A DNA stretch of 27,645 bases from Bacteroidia bacterium. GTDB lineage: Bacteria; Bacteroidota; Bacteroidia; NS11-12g; UBA955. Where the stretch lies: contig JBDNIM010000101.1 of the NCBI GenBank assembly GCA_041688295.1, positions 1-27,645 on the forward strand. The letters are read 5' to 3'. The notes beneath the pieces were generated by a model. The model saw only the letters and a list, made by a program, of their open reading frames with translations, was not told where the DNA came from and searched no databases. Of the stretch, positions 1 through 27,317 are shown one piece after another (the stretch's first letter is position 1; every line of letters starts with the position of its first letter). The position numbers and the translations under genes were made by a program.

Positions 1-155
1 ACTTCATTTTCAGCCTTTTTGTCGTTTTTCCCATCGCTTTCAAATGCAATGTTCCAGCCAAAAGAGTGATACTTTTTAGTTACTGTTAGTTTTTGTCCGC
101 AGCTTGAAATTAACAAGGCAGAGATAATTGTTAATGATAGAAAAATTTTTTTCAT
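1..155 (-). CDS. Lipoprotein of unknown function (5' part, runs off the window)
   Basis: Manual translation from ATG at 155: MKKIFLSLTIISALLISSCGQKLTVTKKYHSFGWNIAF...; KK, hydrophobic stretch, ISSC lipobox; open to the window edge. Not in the ORF track. Confidence 0.7.
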   Translation of the reverse strand, partial: MKKIFLSLTIISALLISSCGQKLTVTKKYHSFGWNIAFESDGKNDKKAENE

Positions 156-194: not shown

Positions 195-1208
195 TTATGA
201 GAGAAAAAAATTTTTTTTCTTTTTTCTCAGGTAATATTCCATAGCAATGCTTTTGTGCAATACTAATTCAGAATTATATACATTTTTTTTGCTTGTATTT
301 CGCTTTTTATACCAATATTTAAGCCTAAAAACGAAATGTCTATGTGCCTTTGCAACAGCAAAAAAGTCAGCTGATTTTCCTTGAAACAACCATCTATAAG
401 CCGCCACATGGTCTAATATTAATCTTGCAATAATAATGGGCAATAGTTTGTTTTTAGGTAGGTTTTTTATCAATAAAATCAATCCATTTCTAAAATTAAA
501 ATATGTTTTTTGTGGATTTGTCTTTTTTAAAGTTCCCCCGCCAACATGATATACTTTACTCTCTGGACAAACCATAATTTTATAGCCTTTGTTTTGCAAT
601 CTCCAGCATAAATCTATTTCCTCCATGTGTGCGAAAAAATCTTCATCTAGTCCTCCTAATTCATGATATAATTCAGCCTTTATAAACATGGCAGCTCCCG
701 TTGCCCAAAATATTTGTTTAATATCGTCATATTGCCCTTGGTCTTCTTCAATTGTTTCAAAAATTCTTCCTCTACAATATGGAAAACCAAATTTATCAAT
801 AAAACCACCACAAGCACCCGCATATTCAAATTTTGCTGGGTAATTATAATCTAATATTTTGGGCTGTATTGCGCCAATTTTTTTATCAGATATTGCTAAA
901 TTAACCATTGGTTGCAACCAGTCTTTATCAACTTTTACATCACTGTTTAATAAAACGAAATAATCTGCTTCAACTAATTTCAATCCGTGGTTATACCCTC
1001 CCGTAAAACCATAATTTTCCTGTAATTCTATTACTTTAATATTTTTAAAATTGCTTTTTAAAAACGCAACAGAATCATCTTTTGAGTGATTGTCTATAAC
1101 AACTATTTCTTTGTTTTCATAGTTTGTATCGCAAACGCTTGGGAGAAAATCTTTTAAAAAATCTTTTGTGTTATAGTTTAAAATAACAATCGCTACTTTA
1201 GGATTCAT
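195..1208 (-). CDS. Glycosyltransferase family 2 (GT-A fold)
   Basis: VAIVILNYN, VIDNHSKD, NYGFTGGYN, LLNSD, WATGAAMFI, FFAHMEEIDLCWR, VYHVGGGT. Start moved to MNPKV (ATG 1208) because the longer ORF start lies inside the upstream gene. Confidence 0.9.
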   Translation of the reverse strand: MNPKVAIVILNYNTKDFLKDFLPSVCDTNYENKEIVVIDNHSKDDSVAFLKSNFKNIKVIELQENYGFTGGYNHGLKLVEADYFVLLNSDVKVDKDWLQPMVNLAISDKKIGAIQPKILDYNYPAKFEYAGACGGFIDKFGFPYCRGRIFETIEEDQGQYDDIKQIFWATGAAMFIKAELYHELGGLDEDFFAHMEEIDLCWRLQNKGYKIMVCPESKVYHVGGGTLKKTNPQKTYFNFRNGLILLIKNLPKNKLLPIIIARLILDHVAAYRWLFQGKSADFFAVAKAHRHFVFRLKYWYKKRNTSKKNVYNSELVLHKSIAMEYYLRKKKKNFFLS

Positions 1209-4344: not shown

Positions 4345-6198
4345 TTATCTACCCAAATGGATTAACAGAACTGAAACATCTGATGGAGAAACACCGCTTA
4401 TCCTTGATGCTTGACCAATGCTTTGTGGTTTAATTTTATTCAACTTTTCCCTTGCCTCCAGGCTCAACGATTTTATACTTAAATAATCAAAGTCTATATT
4501 TAATTGATAGTCTTCCAATTTAACTAGTTTCTCAGCCATTAAATTTTCTTTTAAAATATAGTGCTCATATTTAATCAAAATGTCTATCTGTTCTAAAATT
4601 TCTTCATCTATCGTAATTAATTCAGGGGCAATTTTAAGAAAGTCAAATATAGAAAGTTGTGGTCTTAAAATAAGCTTATCAAGTTTAGTTTTTTGGGTAA
4701 TAGTATTAGTCTCCTTTTCTACTAACAAATCATTTACCTCATTTTCTGCTATAGATTTGGTTTTGATAAAATTTAATGTTTCAGTTATGATTTCTTTTTT
4801 AGCATGTAGATTTTTCAATCTAATTTCTTCGGCCAGTCCAATTTTATAGCCAATCTCTGTCAATCTATCATCTGCATTATCTTGTCTAAGTAAAATTCTG
4901 AATTCAGCTCTTGAAGTAAACATTCTGTAAGGCTCTTCCGTCCCTTTGTTAATCAGATCGTCTATTAGAACACCAATATATGCTTCTGAACGGCTCAAAA
5001 CCAACGGATCTAAATCATTTATTTTTAAGTGGGCATTAATACCTGCCATTAAACCTTGACAAGCAGCTTCCTCATATCCTGTTGTACCGTTTATTTGACC
5101 AGCGAAATAGAGTCCATCAATAAGTTTGGTTTCTAAAGTTGACTTTAATTGAGTTGGTTGAAAAAAATCATATTCAATGGCATAGCCAGGTCTGAATATT
5201 TTAGCCATTTCAAATCCAGGTATCAATCGTATGGCTTTTAATTGAACATCTTCCGGTAATGATGTAGAGAATCCATTAATATACATTTCAATTGTTTGCC
5301 AACCTTCGGGCTCAACAAATATTTGGTGTCTATCTCTTTCAGCAAAACGATTGATTTTATCTTCTATGGAAGGGCAATACCTTGGTCCAATGCCTTGTAT
5401 TCTGCCATTAAACATGGGCGATTTTTCAAATCCTTCTCTTAAAGTTTCGTGTACATTTTCATTGGTGTAGGTTATATAGCAAGGCAGTTGGTGTTTTAAT
5501 GACGATGTGGTTTTGAGATATGAAAATTTTTGAGGATTTATGTCTCCATCTTGTTGCTCCATTTTTGTGTAATTAAGACTTCTTCCATCTACTCTTGGAG
5601 GTGTGCCAGTCTTCATTCTACCGTATTCAAAGCCCAACTTAACCAATGCTGCTGTTATTCCAACACTATTTGTTTCTGCCATTCTACCGCCTCCAAACTT
5701 CTTTTCTCCGATATGTATCAATCCGTTTAGAAAAGTGCCACTTGTTAATACAACCGCTTTTCCATTAAAATTGTAACCTAGAGATGTTGTTACACCTTTT
5801 ATTGTATTATTTTCTGTTATTATGTCAATTACATTGTCTTGCACAAAGTCAACATTTTTGTTTGCTTCTAATATTAAACGCCATTCTTCCGAAAAACGCA
5901 TTCTATCTGATTGTGCTCTTGGACTCCACATAGCAGCCCCTTTCGATCGGTTTAGCATTCTAAATTGTATCATGGTTTTGTCTGTTACAATGCCGCTCAT
6001 GCCTCCAAGTGCATCTATTTCTCTAACAATTTGGCCTTTAGCCACACCTCCCATTGCAGGATTGCAGCTCATTTTGGCGATTGTTTCCATGTTCATTGTA
6101 ATTAACAGCACTTTGCTGCCCATTGTTGCTGCCGCATGTGCCGCTTCGCATCCTGCATGCCCAGCACCGACTATTATTATATCATAAATGTTTTCCAT
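4345..6198 (-). CDS. mnmG: tRNA uridine-5-carboxymethylaminomethyl(34) synthesis enzyme MnmG (GidA)
   Basis: IIVGAGHAGCEAA, MSCNPAMGGVAKGQIVREIDALGG, RMKTGTPPR, GPRYCPSIEDK, AGQINGTTGYEEAACQG, YRMFTSRAEFR, QASRISGVSPSD. Confidence 0.98.
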   Translation of the reverse strand: MENIYDIIIVGAGHAGCEAAHAAATMGSKVLLITMNMETIAKMSCNPAMGGVAKGQIVREIDALGGMSGIVTDKTMIQFRMLNRSKGAAMWSPRAQSDRMRFSEEWRLILEANKNVDFVQDNVIDIITENNTIKGVTTSLGYNFNGKAVVLTSGTFLNGLIHIGEKKFGGGRMAETNSVGITAALVKLGFEYGRMKTGTPPRVDGRSLNYTKMEQQDGDINPQKFSYLKTTSSLKHQLPCYITYTNENVHETLREGFEKSPMFNGRIQGIGPRYCPSIEDKINRFAERDRHQIFVEPEGWQTIEMYINGFSTSLPEDVQLKAIRLIPGFEMAKIFRPGYAIEYDFFQPTQLKSTLETKLIDGLYFAGQINGTTGYEEAACQGLMAGINAHLKINDLDPLVLSRSEAYIGVLIDDLINKGTEEPYRMFTSRAEFRILLRQDNADDRLTEIGYKIGLAEEIRLKNLHAKKEIITETLNFIKTKSIAENEVNDLLVEKETNTITQKTKLDKLILRPQLSIFDFLKIAPELITIDEEILEQIDILIKYEHYILKENLMAEKLVKLEDYQLNIDFDYLSIKSLSLEAREKLNKIKPQSIGQASRISGVSPSDVSVLLIHLGR

Positions 6199-6199
6199 C

Positions 6200-6637
6200 T
6201 TATTTGTTCCCCGTGGAACTTTTTATTATTTTGTAATGTTCTATGTATTTATTCTCCTGACTTGTCATTATGTCTTTGTCTTTTTTTGTTTTATCGTTTT
6301 CGCCAACTAAGTGTAAAAATCCGTGAATTATTATCCTTAGAAGTTCCTCGTGGAACATTGTGTTAAATGTTTTTGCATTGTCTTTCACAGTTTCAAAACT
6401 TATATAGAGGTCGCCTGAAACAAAATTTTCTTCAGAATAATCGTGTGTTATTATGTCTGTGTAATATTCGTGTTGCAAATAGGTTTTGTTCATTTCAAGC
6501 AGTTCGTTGTCATCCACAAGCACTATCGCTATATCCCCTAATTGTTTCTTATAATCAATGCTTATTTGTTTGTAAAGCACCTTAATTGCATTGATTTTGC
6601 CTTTTAATAGTGTTTTTTTACCACCTATACTTATCAT
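6200..6637 (-). CDS. ybeY: rRNA maturation endoribonuclease YbeY
   Basis: LNxxYLQHEYYTDIIT-type motif (MNKTYLQHEYYTDIITHDY), GDLYIS, IIIHGFLHLVGEND (H-x3-H metal site; the usual third His reads N in this translation). Confidence 0.92.
   Translation of the reverse strand: MISIGGKKTLLKGKINAIKVLYKQISIDYKKQLGDIAIVLVDDNELLEMNKTYLQHEYYTDIITHDYSEENFVSGDLYISFETVKDNAKTFNTMFHEELLRIIIHGFLHLVGENDKTKKDKDIMTSQENKYIEHYKIIKSSTGNK
6205..6220. promoter_or_regulatory. parS-like site 1
   Basis: TGTTCCCCGTGGAACT, 14/16 to the palindrome TGTTCCACGTGGAACA; inside the ybeY 3' end, just upstream of the mnmG start. Confidence 0.75.
6342..6357. promoter_or_regulatory. parS-like site 2
   Basis: AGTTCCTCGTGGAACA, 14/16 to consensus; inside ybeY, encoding MFHEEL. 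Confidence 0.75.
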
Positions 6638-8397
6638 TATTTTAATACTGTTATTGTTCCTGTGAAAAGTAGTATTGTGCCGTTAAGCGCAACTACCCTG
6701 CATTTATAAACATATATGTCTGATACCACCAACTCGTCTTTTGTGTCTTTTCCATCCCAACCTTCAGATATATTGGAAATTTTTTTAACCTGTTCTCCCC
6801 AACGGTTAAATATCCAAAGTTCTGATTTGCTTGTGTCTATAAACTGCCCTTTTGGAATAAATGTAGTGTTAAATCCATTTATTTGTATAGCGTTTGGGAA
6901 ATATACTATTGGCTCGGCTGTTATACAAGATATGTTACTGTAGCTTGTGTCTTGTCTTATATATGGTGGAGTAGGACTGTTTTCTATTGCCCTTACACAA
7001 TAACAAATGTAGTTTTCATTTAGACCAAATACGCTAAAGTCTTGGTGGTTTGTTTCTCTATTGTTAACTGTTGTCAGTGTGTTCCACGGGGAACTATTGT
7101 TGAAATTAGGGCTGTTTCCTAGTAGAATTTGTTGATTTTGCGTGTTTTTAATAAAGTCGTCATACAAACTCCATTTTAAATCTTGATTGCCTGGGCTTAT
7201 CATAAGAACCTTTAAAAGTATTGTTGTTGATACTTGGCTAGTATCAAAAATAAAGTTGCATGGCCCTGTCGTTGTGAAATAGTAACTATATGAAAATCTG
7301 TCTGTTTTTACATCCGTGTCAATTCTATTGATAACTCCACCCGTTGTTGGAATGTTCTCAAGTAAAAAGTATGCCCCATTGTTTTCTGATTTGTAAACAT
7401 CAATGGCTTGAAGGGAAGTGCCAGTTTCTGTAATTAAAGTCAACTCAATGTTTTTGTTGTTTACAGTTGCTTTTGCAACATAAGAATTTGCGCTTGCAAT
7501 AATGTTACTGCTTGTTCTGCAACTTTCATTAGAACTTGATGTTGTGTTTTCTCCTGCCTTTTTTGCTCTGATAAAGAAGCAATAATTATCGCCAAAGGTT
7601 GTAAAGTTATAAGTAAACTGACTGATTTGCGGAACAACAGTGCCAACCAGCTGATAGTTGTTTGCGTTAATTTTTCTATAAATTTGATAGCTCTCTACCG
7701 CCCATCCTAAATAATTAGTCCAGCTTAAACTGATTGTTTTGTTGCATTCATTATATGTGTTGGTTAAGTGCATGGTTGTGTGTGCCTGGCTGATTAACGA
7801 AGCAATATTACAACTGTCGAAAGCGGCAATACTATATGAAATTGGCTGTGATGCAGGATCTCTTGAACCTATGTCTAAATAATTTATTTGTGCTGTTGTA
7901 TGTATAATTGTGTTTACACCAGTTACATTATAAATATAATAACCTTTATTGTCTTTGCTGTTGTTGGTTTTCCAACCAATTTGGGTTTTCTGTGTAGCTA
8001 AATTAACTGACACAGAGTCTATTAGAGAATTTTCGGGGGCCGTAATATCGATAATTAAAGTATCGCTGTAAATGCTGTCTGTTCCAGCACAATTGGTGTT
8101 ATAAACCAAATAAAACTCCCACGAACGAAGGTTTTTTAGTTTTAGTTGCACATTGTCTAACGCAAAGTCGTTCCATTTGCCCATAAAGTTATATAAGCCT
8201 AAAATATCATCTCGTCCATAAACGCTAAAGCTTGTAAAACTGCCGCAATTGTCTGTGGGTCTAAACCATAATAAATTTACAGTTGAGTCTGCTCTGTTTA
8301 GACAAACTCGCCTCATTTTCGGCCTGTTTTCAACAGAAAAAGCCGAAATGGTTATTAATAAAAATAATACAAAAACGATATGTTTTTTAAATATCAC
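6637..8397 (-). CDS. T9SS type-B sorting domain (gliding-motility-associated CTD) protein with FnIII-like repeats
   Basis: Signal peptide; beta-sandwich repeats (ISLSWTNYLGW...YQIYRK...YCFFIRA); C-terminal YFPNAIQINGFNTTF...IFNRWGEQV...WDGKD...YVY...GTITVLK. Confidence 0.88.
   Translation of the reverse strand: MIFKKHIVFVLFLLITISAFSVENRPKMRRVCLNRADSTVNLLWFRPTDNCGSFTSFSVYGRDDILGLYNFMGKWNDFALDNVQLKLKNLRSWEFYLVYNTNCAGTDSIYSDTLIIDITAPENSLIDSVSVNLATQKTQIGWKTNNSKDNKGYYIYNVTGVNTIIHTTAQINYLDIGSRDPASQPISYSIAAFDSCNIASLISQAHTTMHLTNTYNECNKTISLSWTNYLGWAVESYQIYRKINANNYQLVGTVVPQISQFTYNFTTFGDNYCFFIRAKKAGENTTSSSNESCRTSSNIIASANSYVAKATVNNKNIELTLITETGTSLQAIDVYKSENNGAYFLLENIPTTGGVINRIDTDVKTDRFSYSYYFTTTGPCNFIFDTSQVSTTILLKVLMISPGNQDLKWSLYDDFIKNTQNQQILLGNSPNFNNSSPWNTLTTVNNRETNHQDFSVFGLNENYICYCVRAIENSPTPPYIRQDTSYSNISCITAEPIVYFPNAIQINGFNTTFIPKGQFIDTSKSELWIFNRWGEQVKKISNISEGWDGKDTKDELVVSDIYVYKCRVVALNGTILLFTGTITVLK
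7080..7095. promoter_or_regulatory. parS-like site 3
   Basis: TGTTCCACGGGGAACT, 14/16 to consensus; inside the T9SS cargo gene. Confidence 0.7.
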
Positions 8398-17437: not shown

Positions 17438-18571
17438 TTATTTTGATTCTGATAGATTCTGGAATAAATGTTTTTTAATCGAATCTTTTAATGCAGCAGA
17501 TAAAAATGTAGGCACAGCATTTCCTATTTGCAAGTTTTTATCGCCTCTTGAACCATAGAAAATATAATGGTCTGGAAAACATTGAATTCTAGCCCCTTCT
17601 CTTGTTGTCAGTGGCCTTGGTGCTATTGGATGGATACACCTCGATGATGAAGGGGTACTTAAATTTCTAGTAATTGTTGTACTAGGTCTGTTCCACCACA
17701 ATCTACAATAAGTATTTGCAAAACCACTTTTAGGTCTCATTTCTTCTGGCAAATCTTTTGGAGTTCCACCATCTGGAAGGTTTTCCATTATTTTGATTAA
17801 ACTACCATTATTGTTGGGGGAATTATGGTCCATTAATTTATTTGGAGCATTTTCTCTCATTAATTTCTGAAATTCATTAACAGGTTCAGTAGCATAAACA
17901 AAACATTCTTCGCTACTTTTGATAAAAGCAAGATCACCAATAGCTTCTCTTAATGTTAGATAAGGTTTTAATTCTTGATTTAAAAGATTAATGCCATCTT
18001 CAGGATTATATCTTGTTGGTTCAGGATACATATATTTAGCATCTAATTTTGTTCCTATAATTATTACTCTTTCTCTTATTTGAGGTGCCCCAAAATCTGC
18101 TGAATTTAAAACTTTATAATCAACCTTATAACCTAATGATTTAAACAACAAAATAATTGACTTTAATAATTCTCCTTGTTGCATAGAAATAAGACCTTTT
18201 ACATTTTCAAATAAAAACATTTTTGGATCTAATTCTTTGAGAACTCTAAAATATTCTTGAAATAGTTTTCCTTTTGGATCGTCAATTAACCTTTTTCCAA
18301 CAGTTGAATATGCTTGACAAGGAGGCCCTCCTATAATTAAATCTATGTCTCCTTTTTTAACACCAAAATCTTTTTTTAAATCTTCAAGTCCAAAATCTTT
18401 TATGTCTTTGCAATAAACTTTAACAGATGGATGATTTAACTCATAAGCTTTTGCCATATTAATCAAAATTTCATTAGCAGCTAAAATTTCAAAATTTTCA
18501 TCTTGAACAAACCCATAACTTAAACCGCCAACTCCTGCAAATAAATCAATAGTTTTGAATTTTTTAAGCAT
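17438..18571 (-). CDS. DNA (cytosine-5)-methyltransferase, Type II R-M
   Basis: IDLFAGVGG (I), GGPPCQ (IV), FENV (VI), QIRER (VIII), REGARIQCFP (IX), QIGNAVP (X). TRD RPKSGFANTY...WW..P..TITRNLSTPSSSRCIHP is recalled as matching H. pylori ACGT methyltransferases (not verified). Confidence 0.95.
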   Translation of the reverse strand: MLKKFKTIDLFAGVGGLSYGFVQDENFEILAANEILINMAKAYELNHPSVKVYCKDIKDFGLEDLKKDFGVKKGDIDLIIGGPPCQAYSTVGKRLIDDPKGKLFQEYFRVLKELDPKMFLFENVKGLISMQQGELLKSIILLFKSLGYKVDYKVLNSADFGAPQIRERVIIIGTKLDAKYMYPEPTRYNPEDGINLLNQELKPYLTLREAIGDLAFIKSSEECFVYATEPVNEFQKLMRENAPNKLMDHNSPNNNGSLIKIMENLPDGGTPKDLPEEMRPKSGFANTYCRLWWNRPSTTITRNLSTPSSSRCIHPIAPRPLTTREGARIQCFPDHYIFYGSRGDKNLQIGNAVPTFLSAALKDSIKKHLFQNLSESK

Positions 18572-18582
18572 AATCTTATATT

Positions 18583-19365
18583 TTAAATTTTAAATAATTT
18601 TTTATAGTTAGGTGGGAATTCCGTTAATTTCCAAACAAAATAATTTTGATCTATATTAAAAACAGTTTGCCCTTCCAATTGTTGTCTTGTTATCCAATTT
18701 AGACTGTCATCATCAATATTATCTATTTTTACAAAAGCAACCTGCCCATTGTATAAATCAAAATGAACAACTAATGAAGGAATCTTCTCTTCTCTTTTAA
18801 TTCTTTTTGCTTCTAAAACTTTGTGTTGTTTAATGTCATTTATTCCTTGAAATCCAGATTGAACTTCAATTCTAATCTTTTTGTCATTTTTTAATTTAAT
18901 TAGCAAATCTGCCTTTGGTGATTTTTTAAAAGTTTCAATATTTACTAAATCATCATCTCCAATTAAATCAATATTTTCAATATCAACATCAAAAACTTTG
19001 CTCAATGCACTTAAAAAATATGAAGACATTACAAATCCACGCATCCAAGAAAAATAAACTTCTTCAGGTCTTCTACCTAGATTATTTAGTCTCGAAATGA
19101 TGTTGTGTGTTTTTAATTTCTCAAATACTGTTTTTATATTTTCATCACAAAATATCCCTAAATCTTCAACTTTTATTTCATCCACGACCAAATCATTTAT
19201 TTTTGCTACTATTTCAAGTAGTCTGTAGTTTAATAATTCTATATAATTGTAATCAATTGTTGGAATTATATCTTTCGCACCCAAAAAAGCCTTAAGTTTA
19301 TTCTGATTAGTAAAGCCCAGTTGTTCTCTATATTCCTTGAAGTATTTTGTATCAATCATTGTCAT
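18583..19365 (-). CDS. Type II restriction endonuclease (recalled as HpyCH4IV-like)
   Basis: Directly upstream of the MTase (11-nt gap); PD-(D/E)xK-like KADL...IEVQSG...DIK; RLNNLGRRPEEVYFSWMRG. Start ATG 19365 or 19359 (track uses TTG 19380). Confidence 0.8.
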   Translation of the reverse strand: MTMIDTKYFKEYREQLGFTNQNKLKAFLGAKDIIPTIDYNYIELLNYRLLEIVAKINDLVVDEIKVEDLGIFCDENIKTVFEKLKTHNIISRLNNLGRRPEEVYFSWMRGFVMSSYFLSALSKVFDVDIENIDLIGDDDLVNIETFKKSPKADLLIKLKNDKKIRIEVQSGFQGINDIKQHKVLEAKRIKREEKIPSLVVHFDLYNGQVAFVKIDNIDDDSLNWITRQQLEGQTVFNIDQNYFVWKLTEFPPNYKKLFKI

Positions 19366-19422
19366 ATTTTTAGTTATCAAAAATCATTCGCTAACAGTAG
19401 TCTCATTTTTTAATTTCAACTA

Positions 19423-25605: not shown

Positions 25606-26490
25606 ATGTTTTATAGAAGAAAAATAATATTGGCATTATTACAGATTTTTGATGGAAATATTGATAAAATAAGCTTGCAGAAACTACTGTTTTTATTCTC
25701 CAAACGACAAAGTAAAGCTGAATATGATTTTATTCCATACCGTTTTGGTTGCTATTCTTATTCTGCAAACGCTGACTTAACTGCTATGGTTAATAAAGAA
25801 TTATTGACAGAAACAAAAAGTCATTTTATTAGTATTGAAAAAATCGATTACTTTAAAGTTTTAAAAGAAAATGACAAAAAAATTATGATAGAAATTAAAG
25901 CTCTTTATGGAAAAATGAATGCAGATGCTTTAATGAAGCACACCTATCTAAATTTTCCTTATTGGGCAATCAATAGCGTTAAGGCAAGCGAAATATTAAC
26001 AGTAGATCAATTTGAGAAAGTCAATAACAGTAGACCCAAAACCAATGAAATTAGTTTGTTTACTATTGGATATGAAGGTATTTCTTTGGAAGAGTATTTA
26101 AATAGATTGCTTAAAAATGATGTGAAAATATTAGTTGATGTTAGAAATAATGCTTTAAGTATGAAATATGGTTTTAGCAAAAGTCTATTGCAACGATTCT
26201 GTAATAGCTTGGGAATTGAATATTTGCATTTCCACGAAGTAGGCATACAATCTGACCAAAGACAAGAATTAAATAATCAAAATGATTACGATAAATTATT
26301 TTCTATTTATTGTGAAACTAATCTAAAAAAAACAACTGATTCTCAGTTGAAAATTTTAGATTTATTGCAAAAACACAAACGAATAGCTTTAACTTGCTTT
26401 GAATCTAATATTTGTCAATGCCATAGAAAACATTTGGCCGAAGCAATTGAAAATTTGCCAAACTTTAAATATCAAGTAAAACATATTTAA
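25606..26490 (+). CDS. DUF488 family protein with an N-terminal SocA-like winged-helix domain
   Basis: aa 151-294: LFTIGYEG, LVDVR, SMKYGFSK, GIEYLH, ALTCFE...CHR. aa 1-125: LQKLLF...YDFIPYRFGCYS...YLNFPYW. Confidence 0.85.
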   Translation: MFYRRKIILALLQIFDGNIDKISLQKLLFLFSKRQSKAEYDFIPYRFGCYSYSANADLTAMVNKELLTETKSHFISIEKIDYFKVLKENDKKIMIEIKALYGKMNADALMKHTYLNFPYWAINSVKASEILTVDQFEKVNNSRPKTNEISLFTIGYEGISLEEYLNRLLKNDVKILVDVRNNALSMKYGFSKSLLQRFCNSLGIEYLHFHEVGIQSDQRQELNNQNDYDKLFSIYCETNLKKTTDSQLKILDLLQKHKRIALTCFESNICQCHRKHLAEAIENLPNFKYQVKHI

Positions 26491-26492
26491 AT

Positions 26493-27317
26493 ATGGCAAA
26501 GACAAAAGTATTGATTACTGTAAAAACTTACCCTGCCATTTCCGGGAAATATGACGAATTGGTATGTACCGCTGGTTTTTTGGAGGATGGAACATGGATT
26601 CGAATTTACCCTATTCAATTTCGAAAAAAATCTTTTGAAGAGCAATATAAAAAATATGATTGGATTGAAATCGACCTTGTAAAAAACAAAAGAGATTTTA
26701 GAAAAGAAAGTTTTAGACCAGTTTCATACGATACTGAAATTAAAATTTTAGACCATTTAGATACAAAAAGTAATTGGTTGCTGCGAAAAGAAATTGTGTT
26801 CAAAAACGAAATCTATAATGATATTCAAAAACTAGTTTTAGAAGCAAAGAACAGAGAAATCATGACTTCTCTTGCGGTATTCAAACCAACCGAAATAAGC
26901 AATTTTACGATTGAACAAGTAGAAAGAGAATGGAACAAAAAGAGGCTTGAAAAGCTAAAACATGATAGAAGTAGTAATTTATTTGCACAAGAAGAAGAGG
27001 ACTTGTTTGAAGTGATTAGAAAACTTCCTTATAAATTTTCTTATGTTCTACGAGACTGTAATGGAAAACAAAGTAAAATGATGATTGAAGATTGGGAAAT
27101 AGGTCAGCTTTATTGGAACTGTCTTGCTAAACACGAAGGAAACGAAGTAAAAGCAGTTGAAGATGTTAGGAAAAAATATTTTGATGACTTCGCAAAAACA
27201 AAAGACTTACATTTGTTTTTAGGAACATCGCAACTCCACCATTTAACGGGCAAAAATCCATTTATGATTATTGGAACTTTTCATCCGAAAAAAGAAAATC
27301 AACAAACTTTGTTTTAA
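26493..27317 (+). CDS. Uncharacterised DUF488-partner protein, putative OB-fold nucleic-acid-binding
   Basis: 2 nt after the DUF488 stop; VLITVKTYP...LVCTAG...WIRIYP...KKYDWI...RKESFRP; PYKFSY...MIEDWEIG...HLFLGT; ends QQTLF. Fold is inferred from recalled family resemblance. Confidence 0.75.
   Translation: MAKTKVLITVKTYPAISGKYDELVCTAGFLEDGTWIRIYPIQFRKKSFEEQYKKYDWIEIDLVKNKRDFRKESFRPVSYDTEIKILDHLDTKSNWLLRKEIVFKNEIYNDIQKLVLEAKNREIMTSLAVFKPTEISNFTIEQVEREWNKKRLEKLKHDRSSNLFAQEEEDLFEVIRKLPYKFSYVLRDCNGKQSKMMIEDWEIGQLYWNCLAKHEGNEVKAVEDVRKKYFDDFAKTKDLHLFLGTSQLHHLTGKNPFMIIGTFHPKKENQQTLF

Follow-up and report, generated by a model that had tools for sequence, protein, structure and literature searches.

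Predicted parS sites without an ACGT centre in a Bacteroidia genome purged of ACGT

The window analysed here, the whole 27,645-nucleotide contig JBDNIM010000101.1 of a Bacteroidia bacterium (contig C293 of the genome under study, G000), carries three predicted parS sites between positions 6205 and 7095, and none of them has the ACGT tetramer at its centre. The genome itself was found to be almost emptied of ACGT. We infer selection as the cause of the core changes and give a probability of about 0.6 to the reading in which sites 1 and 2 lost their ACGT to selection against this word, through the one kind of change to which ParB is tolerant in the genus. A comparison with other lineages supported a link between the rewriting of parS and the avoidance of ACGT as a recurrent tendency, not as a rule.

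A triad of predicted parS sites beside mnmG

The assembly of G000 consists of 521 contigs with 2.49 Mb and 33% G+C and has a completeness of 86%. Site 1, TGTTCCCCGTGGAACT, is located at 6205-6220 and has the centre CCGT. Site 2, AGTTCCTCGTGGAACA, is located at 6342-6357 inside ybeY and has the centre TCGT, and site 3, TGTTCCACGGGGAACT, at 7080-7095 has the centre ACGG and lies inside the gene of a protein sorted by the type IX secretion system (T9SS); all three are given without strand. When the 16-mers were compared with TGTTCCACGTGGAACA, each showed two mismatches, one in the central tetramer and one at a terminal base, and a C-to-T change was present at none of the three. This bore out what the initial annotation had read from the letters of the window. 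By chance 0.06 matches were expected in the window, and three were reached in 0 of 100 shuffles. The arms with an open centre, GTTCC-N4-GGAAC, occur four times in the whole 2.49-Mb assembly, and three of these occurrences are at 6205-7095.

Other parS sites that keep ACGT in this genome had been named as an observation that would speak against a centromere moving away from the tetramer. No ACGT-centred parS-like site was found in the assembly, where the assembled 86% of the genome was searched. A fourth look-alike with a deamination-type core (C395:5272, TGTTGCATGTGGAACA) was rejected as a parS site and regarded as a chance match, because the orthologous sequence in five clade relatives is not conserved and is ordinary non-palindromic coding DNA.

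From their sequence and position we identify the three palindromes as the chromosomal parS sites of G000, with ParB binding predicted. The triad was observed at fixed offsets from the mnmG start in 27 congeners, at +3..16, at +135..144 (+43..45 in one clade) and at +867..921, and canonical parS was found at the same locus in other families of the order. Over 28 genomes, the conservation of the 16-mers was 0.94-0.97, as compared to 0.55-0.69 for the 30-bp flanks. The three sites are placed in three different contexts, a gene end or intergenic region, ybeY and the T9SS gene, and therefore it is the DNA word that is conserved and not a protein motif. In the clade with the offset of +43..45, which includes G031 (locus L062), G043 (L065) and G007 (L015), the second copy follows the first after 36-38 bp and is not in ybeY (+135..144). 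Six other members of this clade miss the second copy, and the triad is rearranged there.

The conserved anchor of the triad is mnmG/gidA at 4345-6198 on the minus strand (PF01134, E 2.7e-165). It is neighboured by ybeY at 6200-6637, also on the minus strand (endoribonuclease YbeY; PF02130, E 4.7e-23), which hosts sites 1 and 2, and by the T9SS gene at 6637-8397 on the minus strand, which hosts site 3 and was recognised by a domain match (CHU_C / type B sorting domain). Site 1 spans the final six codons of ybeY in G000 and is intergenic in the closest relatives. Site 2 encodes FH[V/E]EL in YbeY, and the change in G000 turns FHVEL into FHEEL (V to E), whereas site 3 encodes SS[T/P/S]WN in the T9SS protein, with SSPWN in G000. 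The derived changes at sites 1 and 2 are thus non-synonymous or in the gene tail. The earlier caution that the sites lie in coding sequence, where protein constraints also act, is correct in part: sites 2 and 3 lie inside genes, and site 1 is at a gene end in G000 only and intergenic in the closest relatives.

The ParB_N domain was present in 23 of 23 high-quality relatives, and no match was obtained in the 86%-complete assembly of G000. The parA gene of G000 (contig C242:8560-9383, locus L208) ends 26 bp before the contig end. It is followed by ATGAGTAA, the first codons of the next gene, parB, and then the contig stops. Since the assembly breaks exactly at the parB start, the missing parB was assigned to the assembly break and a real absence of ParB was rejected.

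The G000 sites share with the known chromosomal parS (TGTTNCACGTGNAACA; Bacillus subtilis, Caulobacter, Helicobacter pylori and most bacteria) the 16-bp palindrome with intact GTTCC/GGAAC arms and central CG, the clustering of two or three copies beside mnmG/gidA, kept across the genus and the order, and the presence of parA/parB in the lineage. They differ in that none of the three copies has an ACGT centre and that in each copy exactly one half-site is altered, at the position facing G201 of ParB. Because the orthologous sites in the relatives mostly have ACGT, the centres in G000 are, by this comparison, derived variants of true parS.

ACGT purge and the restriction-modification cassette

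ACGT was counted at 165 sites in G000, where about 2350 are expected. This corresponds to an observed-to-expected ratio (O/E) of 0.07, the lowest of all 256 tetramers, so that about 93% of the expected words are gone, and 412 of the 521 contigs have no ACGT at all. Genomes with an O/E of 0.38 or less were classified as ACGT-purged. The 29 congeners sampled had values of 0.46-1.19 in 20-kb samples and none of them was purged; among these congeners, the purge is specific to the species of G000. The ancestral ACGT sites that could be aligned with four relatives were 12 in about 10 kb, of which two are parS, too few for a substitution spectrum.

Helicobacter pylori is a classic ACGT-avoiding species. 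G000 resembles such known cases of restriction-site (palindrome) avoidance in the genome-wide depletion of a 4-bp palindrome together with a matching restriction-modification (R-M) system of presumed specificity, and differs from them in that a functional DNA signal of almost universal occurrence is affected by the avoidance. ParB work on H. pylori was done with a parS that keeps ACGT (PMC11229316).

The putative R-M system of G000 is encoded in the window. A C-5 cytosine DNA methyltransferase is located at 17438-18571 on the minus strand (PF00145, 3.4e-73; TIGR00675, 4.7e-65) and matches M.HaeIII, M.HhaI (PDB) and DNMT1. Directly upstream, at 18583-19380 on the minus strand, lies its 265-aa partner, a putative ACGT restriction endonuclease. 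The open reading frame of the partner gave no Pfam or NCBIfam match, and several of its homologues carry the NCBI name 'restriction endonuclease'. In the congeners the methylase has no near counterpart, and the best match reaches 39% identity. Homologues with 56-85% identity were found in 23 genomes of many phyla, with carriers among the Gammaproteobacteria, Patescibacteria, Cloacimonadota, Bacteroidales, Ignavibacteria, Rickettsiales and Campylobacterota. A homologue of the 265-aa gene was located directly upstream in 23 of the 24 loci with a methylase homologue of at least 56% identity.

The flanks of the cassette loci (6-21 kb) had an ACGT O/E of 0.00-0.45 in 22 of 23 cases, and ACGT was usually the lowest palindrome. 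The remaining locus, with a flank of 3.6 kb, had 0.86, and the flank of a distant methylase homologue (29% identity) without the partner gene had 0.98. We regard the methylase and the 265-aa nuclease as a putative mobile ACGT-specific R-M cassette, the specificity being deduced from composition only. It is similar to the type II R-M systems of the MaeII / HpyCH4IV type (ACGT), which also have two genes for an m5C (5-methylcytosine) methylase and a small nuclease, are mobile and occur in ACGT-poor carriers. At the loci L084-L106, the cassette proteins are 72-85% identical across Patescibacteria, Rickettsiales, Campylobacterota and Bacteroidota, which points to a recent and wide horizontal spread. 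In the purged Ignavibacteriaceae genome G073, a 74-aa open frame (C36:31593-31808) matches only the C-terminal 72 residues of the nuclease, with 81% identity, and looks like a decayed copy of the cassette.

Further words are depleted in G000, namely GATC (O/E 0.27), CGCG (0.33), CCGG (0.52) and GGCC (0.53), and two further m5C methylase genes are present at C486:1873-2442 and C364:694-1044. Several R-M specificities have probably shaped this genome. In the 20-kb sample of the congener G043 (locus L053), the O/E was 0.02 for GATC, 0.10 for CGCG and 0.46 for ACGT.

Selection on the parS cores and its alternatives

The timing of the core changes was followed in an mnmG tree, where G000 falls into a clade with G003, G037, G004, G018 and G001 (Shimodaira-Hasegawa-like approximate likelihood ratio test support, SH-aLRT, 97). 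All five relatives have ACGT, ACGT and ACGG at sites 1, 2 and 3, and therefore the changes A to C at site 1 and A to T at site 2 took place on the own long branch of G000. In the genus, site 1 is ACGT-centred in 18 of 27 congeners. At site 3, ACGG is common to about 18 unpurged congeners, whereas seven have ACGT and two have ACGA; by this distribution the ACGG of G000 is inherited and not new. Compared with some of the other cases, that of G000 is less clean, as inheritance accounts for one of the three changes and these positions vary in the genus in any case.

The preferred reading would then run as follows. The lineage would have been under long-lasting selection against ACGT, most likely driven by a restriction system that cuts ACGT, like the one formed by the m5C methylase and the nuclease at a distance of 10 kb, and this selection would have removed about 93% of the expected sites. 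With site 3 already ACGG in an ancestor, the purge would have reached the two parS copies that were still ACGT, sites 1 and 2. Each would have been disarmed by one transversion at an outer base of the tetramer (A to C and A to T), a change that preserves the central CG and one perfect half-site. The proposal of the initial annotation that the centromere has evolved away from an R-M target is accordingly retained for sites 1 and 2, where the O/E of 0.07, the cassette, the changes on the own branch and the strong enrichment in purged genomes of at least six other lineages point the same way, and dropped for the inherited site 3.

The enrichment was obtained by scanning the whole genomes of cassette carriers and their relatives for parS, with the ACGT O/E taken from 20-kb samples. 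The 93 genomes comprised 29 purged and 64 unpurged ones. No ACGT core was found in 21 of the 29 purged genomes, with the core kept in 8, as compared to 15 of the 64 unpurged genomes, where 49 kept it. Six or seven independent contrasts were obtained and all had the same direction, a loss of the core with the purge. In the Sulfurospirillaceae genome G052 (O/E 0.00), both parS sites have ACAT, whereas 11 of 11 close relatives have ACGT at both sites with the same 2.3-kb spacing; six sampled relatives had an O/E of 0.78-1.05. The Bergeyella-labelled genome G054 (O/E 0.03) has CCGT and ACGG, and 14 relatives keep ACGT in both sites. An ACGT core was likewise missing in the purged Paludibacteraceae (G046, G055, G056, G061, G057), the purged Ignavibacteriaceae (G048, G070, G072, G073, G075-G078), the purged Cloacimonadota (G045, G122, G128) and the purged genomes G102 and G103, and their cores were only ATGT/ACAT or TCGT/CCGT. 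The unpurged genomes G060, G069, G071 and G074 have rewritten cores and are placed among or beside purged genomes, which fits a rewritten core that persisted after a rebound of ACGT.

Whether ParB would accept such cores can be judged from published work and from the ParB proteins of the relatives. Within a half-site the A of ACGT occupies position 6, and parS is distinguished from the Noc site by this base and one other. A structure and mutant screen of Caulobacter ParB showed that G201 offers no side chain that reads the position-6 base pair (PMC7383237). A lysine at 179 or 184 makes the Caulobacter protein promiscuous at positions 1 and 6 (PMC7383237). At the equivalent of 184, which was mapped by the motif LRLLKLP, the ParBs of the genus and of other sampled Bacteroidota carry K or R in most cases and N in one. 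In three groups the recognition helix did not differ between lineages that have ACGT cores and lineages that lack them, and the helix of G052 agreed with that of its relatives. No re-specification of ParB was seen in these three groups, where the ParBs of relatives were compared, that of G000 itself being missing from the assembly. This evidence favours a tolerance of ParB for variant cores over re-specification, as far as the protein sequences tell. Because the outer core base is weakly read and the recognition helix is unchanged between lineages, the loading of ParB most likely continues at the variant cores of G000.

The variants were also compared with the Noc-binding site (NBS) of Firmicutes, each half-site of which carries A at position 1 together with C at position 6 and differs from parS at these two bases (PMC7383237). 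With CCGT or ACGG, one half-site acquires a C at position 6, as in the change from parS to NBS. In G000, however, position 1 stays G and the C at position 6 is present in one half-site only (sites 1 and 3), while other variants carry a T at position 6. The R201 of Noc was not seen, because the GH(A)K/R motif has retained its glycine in the ParBs of the relatives. The G000 sites do not belong to the NBS class.

Several observations weigh against selection as the cause. The genome counts behind the association of core loss with the purge (odds ratio 8.6, Fisher p 2e-5) are uncorrected for relatedness. Seven purged genomes (G047, G049, G050, G053, G108, G114, G130) keep an ACGT-centred parS, and therefore the purge does not force the change. 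The ACGT specificity of the cassette was read from word counts, and the binding of ParB to the variant sites was predicted from sequence while the own ParB of G000 is absent from the contigs. The nuclease was detected in the purged relatives only in G046 and G048 and as the 74-aa remnant in G073. In 8 of 10 purged genomes tested, the m5C methylase gave no match at E 1e-20, and the two matches obtained were only 36-38% identical. The expectation that the purged relatives carry the cassette of G000 was therefore given up. Most of them are without the nuclease and the methylase, so that the loss of the core tracks the ACGT purge, whatever its driver, and not this gene.

The genus itself adds to these points. 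CCGT at site 1 was also found in the unpurged, methylase-free genomes G008 and G007, and TCGT at site 2 in G016 and G009, which are likewise unpurged and methylase-free. The initial annotation had held that the same variants in relatives without such a methyltransferase would speak against it, and this applies in part. No ACGT core at all was present in 8 of 27 unpurged congeners (G031, G043, G032, G008, G039, G035, G007, G011), with O/E values of 0.46-1.19. Since unpurged congeners have the same variants, the parS positions 7 and 10 are labile in the genus even without a purge. A post hoc estimate based on rates over the whole tree gave a probability of roughly 0.02-0.08 that both changes fell on the G000 branch by chance.

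The main alternative is a neutral or nearly neutral drift, in which ParB reads the outer core bases at positions 7 and 10 only weakly in this genus and these bases change whether or not restriction acts, so that the lack of ACGT cores in G000 coincides with its purge by accident. This is possible, though on balance unlikely. The eight unpurged congeners without an ACGT core agree with it, as do several independent switches among ACGT, ACGG, CCGT, TCGT and ACGA, the inheritance of site 3 and the K or R at the 184-equivalent of ParB, which was permissive in the Caulobacter experiments. Yet in the half of the tree that contains G000, with 16 genomes, there is no second genome among the 15 others in which ACGT is gone from sites 1 and 2 alike, and the clean double changes within a single lineage in G052 and G054 occurred exactly in the purged genome. 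Drift is also at odds with the association across the 93 genomes. The variants in the genus are always a single change of the outer A or T with an invariant CG, and no site has two core changes, which argues for a constraint.

An epigenetic interference, where m5C in the central CpG hampers the loading of ParB and selection removed the target from parS specifically, is improbable. The methylase of the cassette is indeed a C-5 cytosine enzyme, and every rewritten site loses the methylase target by a single change. However, four genomes with the cassette (G047, G049, G050, G053) keep a perfect or near-perfect ACGT-centred parS, which weakens the original suggestion that m5C disturbs ParB loading. 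In many purged genomes whose parS is rewritten, no homologue of this m5C methylase was detected, and ACGT was lost from the whole genome, not from parS alone.

A purely mutational erosion without selection, in which the deamination of m5C turns ACGT into ATGT or ACAT, is very improbable. These products are what the Paludibacteraceae, Ignavibacteriaceae, Cloacimonadota and Sulfurospirillaceae groups have, and deamination may explain these lineages. In G000 there is no C-to-T among the changes, and the same is true for G054 and G103; the changes of G000 are transversions and simple deamination therefore cannot explain them. That the palindromes are not parS but belong to a coding motif or are bound by a different protein is hardly credible, for although two of the three lie within coding sequence and the binding of ParB is predicted only, the 16-mer fits the universal parS arms, is kept in three sequence contexts and across families, and adjoins mnmG with no other such cluster in the genome.

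Restriction and the bacterial centromere

In six of the seven purged genomes that kept their sites, the parS cores account for every ACGT word of the 20-kb sample or for the majority of them, and parS is the last island of the purged word in these genomes. The share of parS was 2/2 in G047 (C7:78937, 80864), 2/2 in G049 (C2:265056, 271249), 1/1 in G053 (C277:16697), 4/5 in G050 (C4:110960-116351) and 2/2 in G114 (C11:65358, 67286).

A wider reading, in which ACGT-cutting restriction is a recurrent evolutionary force on the bacterial centromere, is tentative and we think it unlikely. In this view, the occupation by ParB may leave parS poorly methylated, and self-restriction near the origin would then strike it preferentially. 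A lineage might respond in one of two ways, with one tolerated base change in each of its parS cores or with parS kept as a final island of ACGT. The changed cores might persist as scars after the loss of the R-M system and the rebound of ACGT, and such a persistence would explain the unpurged congeners and sister species with an ACGT-less parS.

The components, parS, ParB, restriction avoidance and ACGT R-M systems, are already known; in a full-text search of the literature, no link between parS and restriction avoidance was found. parS is among the most conserved bacterial DNA signals, with an ACGT centre that is commonly taken to be invariant. The data indicate that the avoidance of a four-letter restriction target can overwrite this signal time and again and across phyla, though only by a few kinds of single change, ATGT/ACAT, CCGT/ACGG and TCGT/ACGA. 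The lineages thereby offer a natural experiment on the core changes that ParB tolerates, and a connection between defence systems and chromosome segregation becomes testable. For annotation, parS finders that demand ACGT will miss real centromeres in ACGT-poor genomes.

Elsewhere in the window, at 25606-27317, a 274-aa protein without a family match is encoded as the partner of a DUF488 gene.

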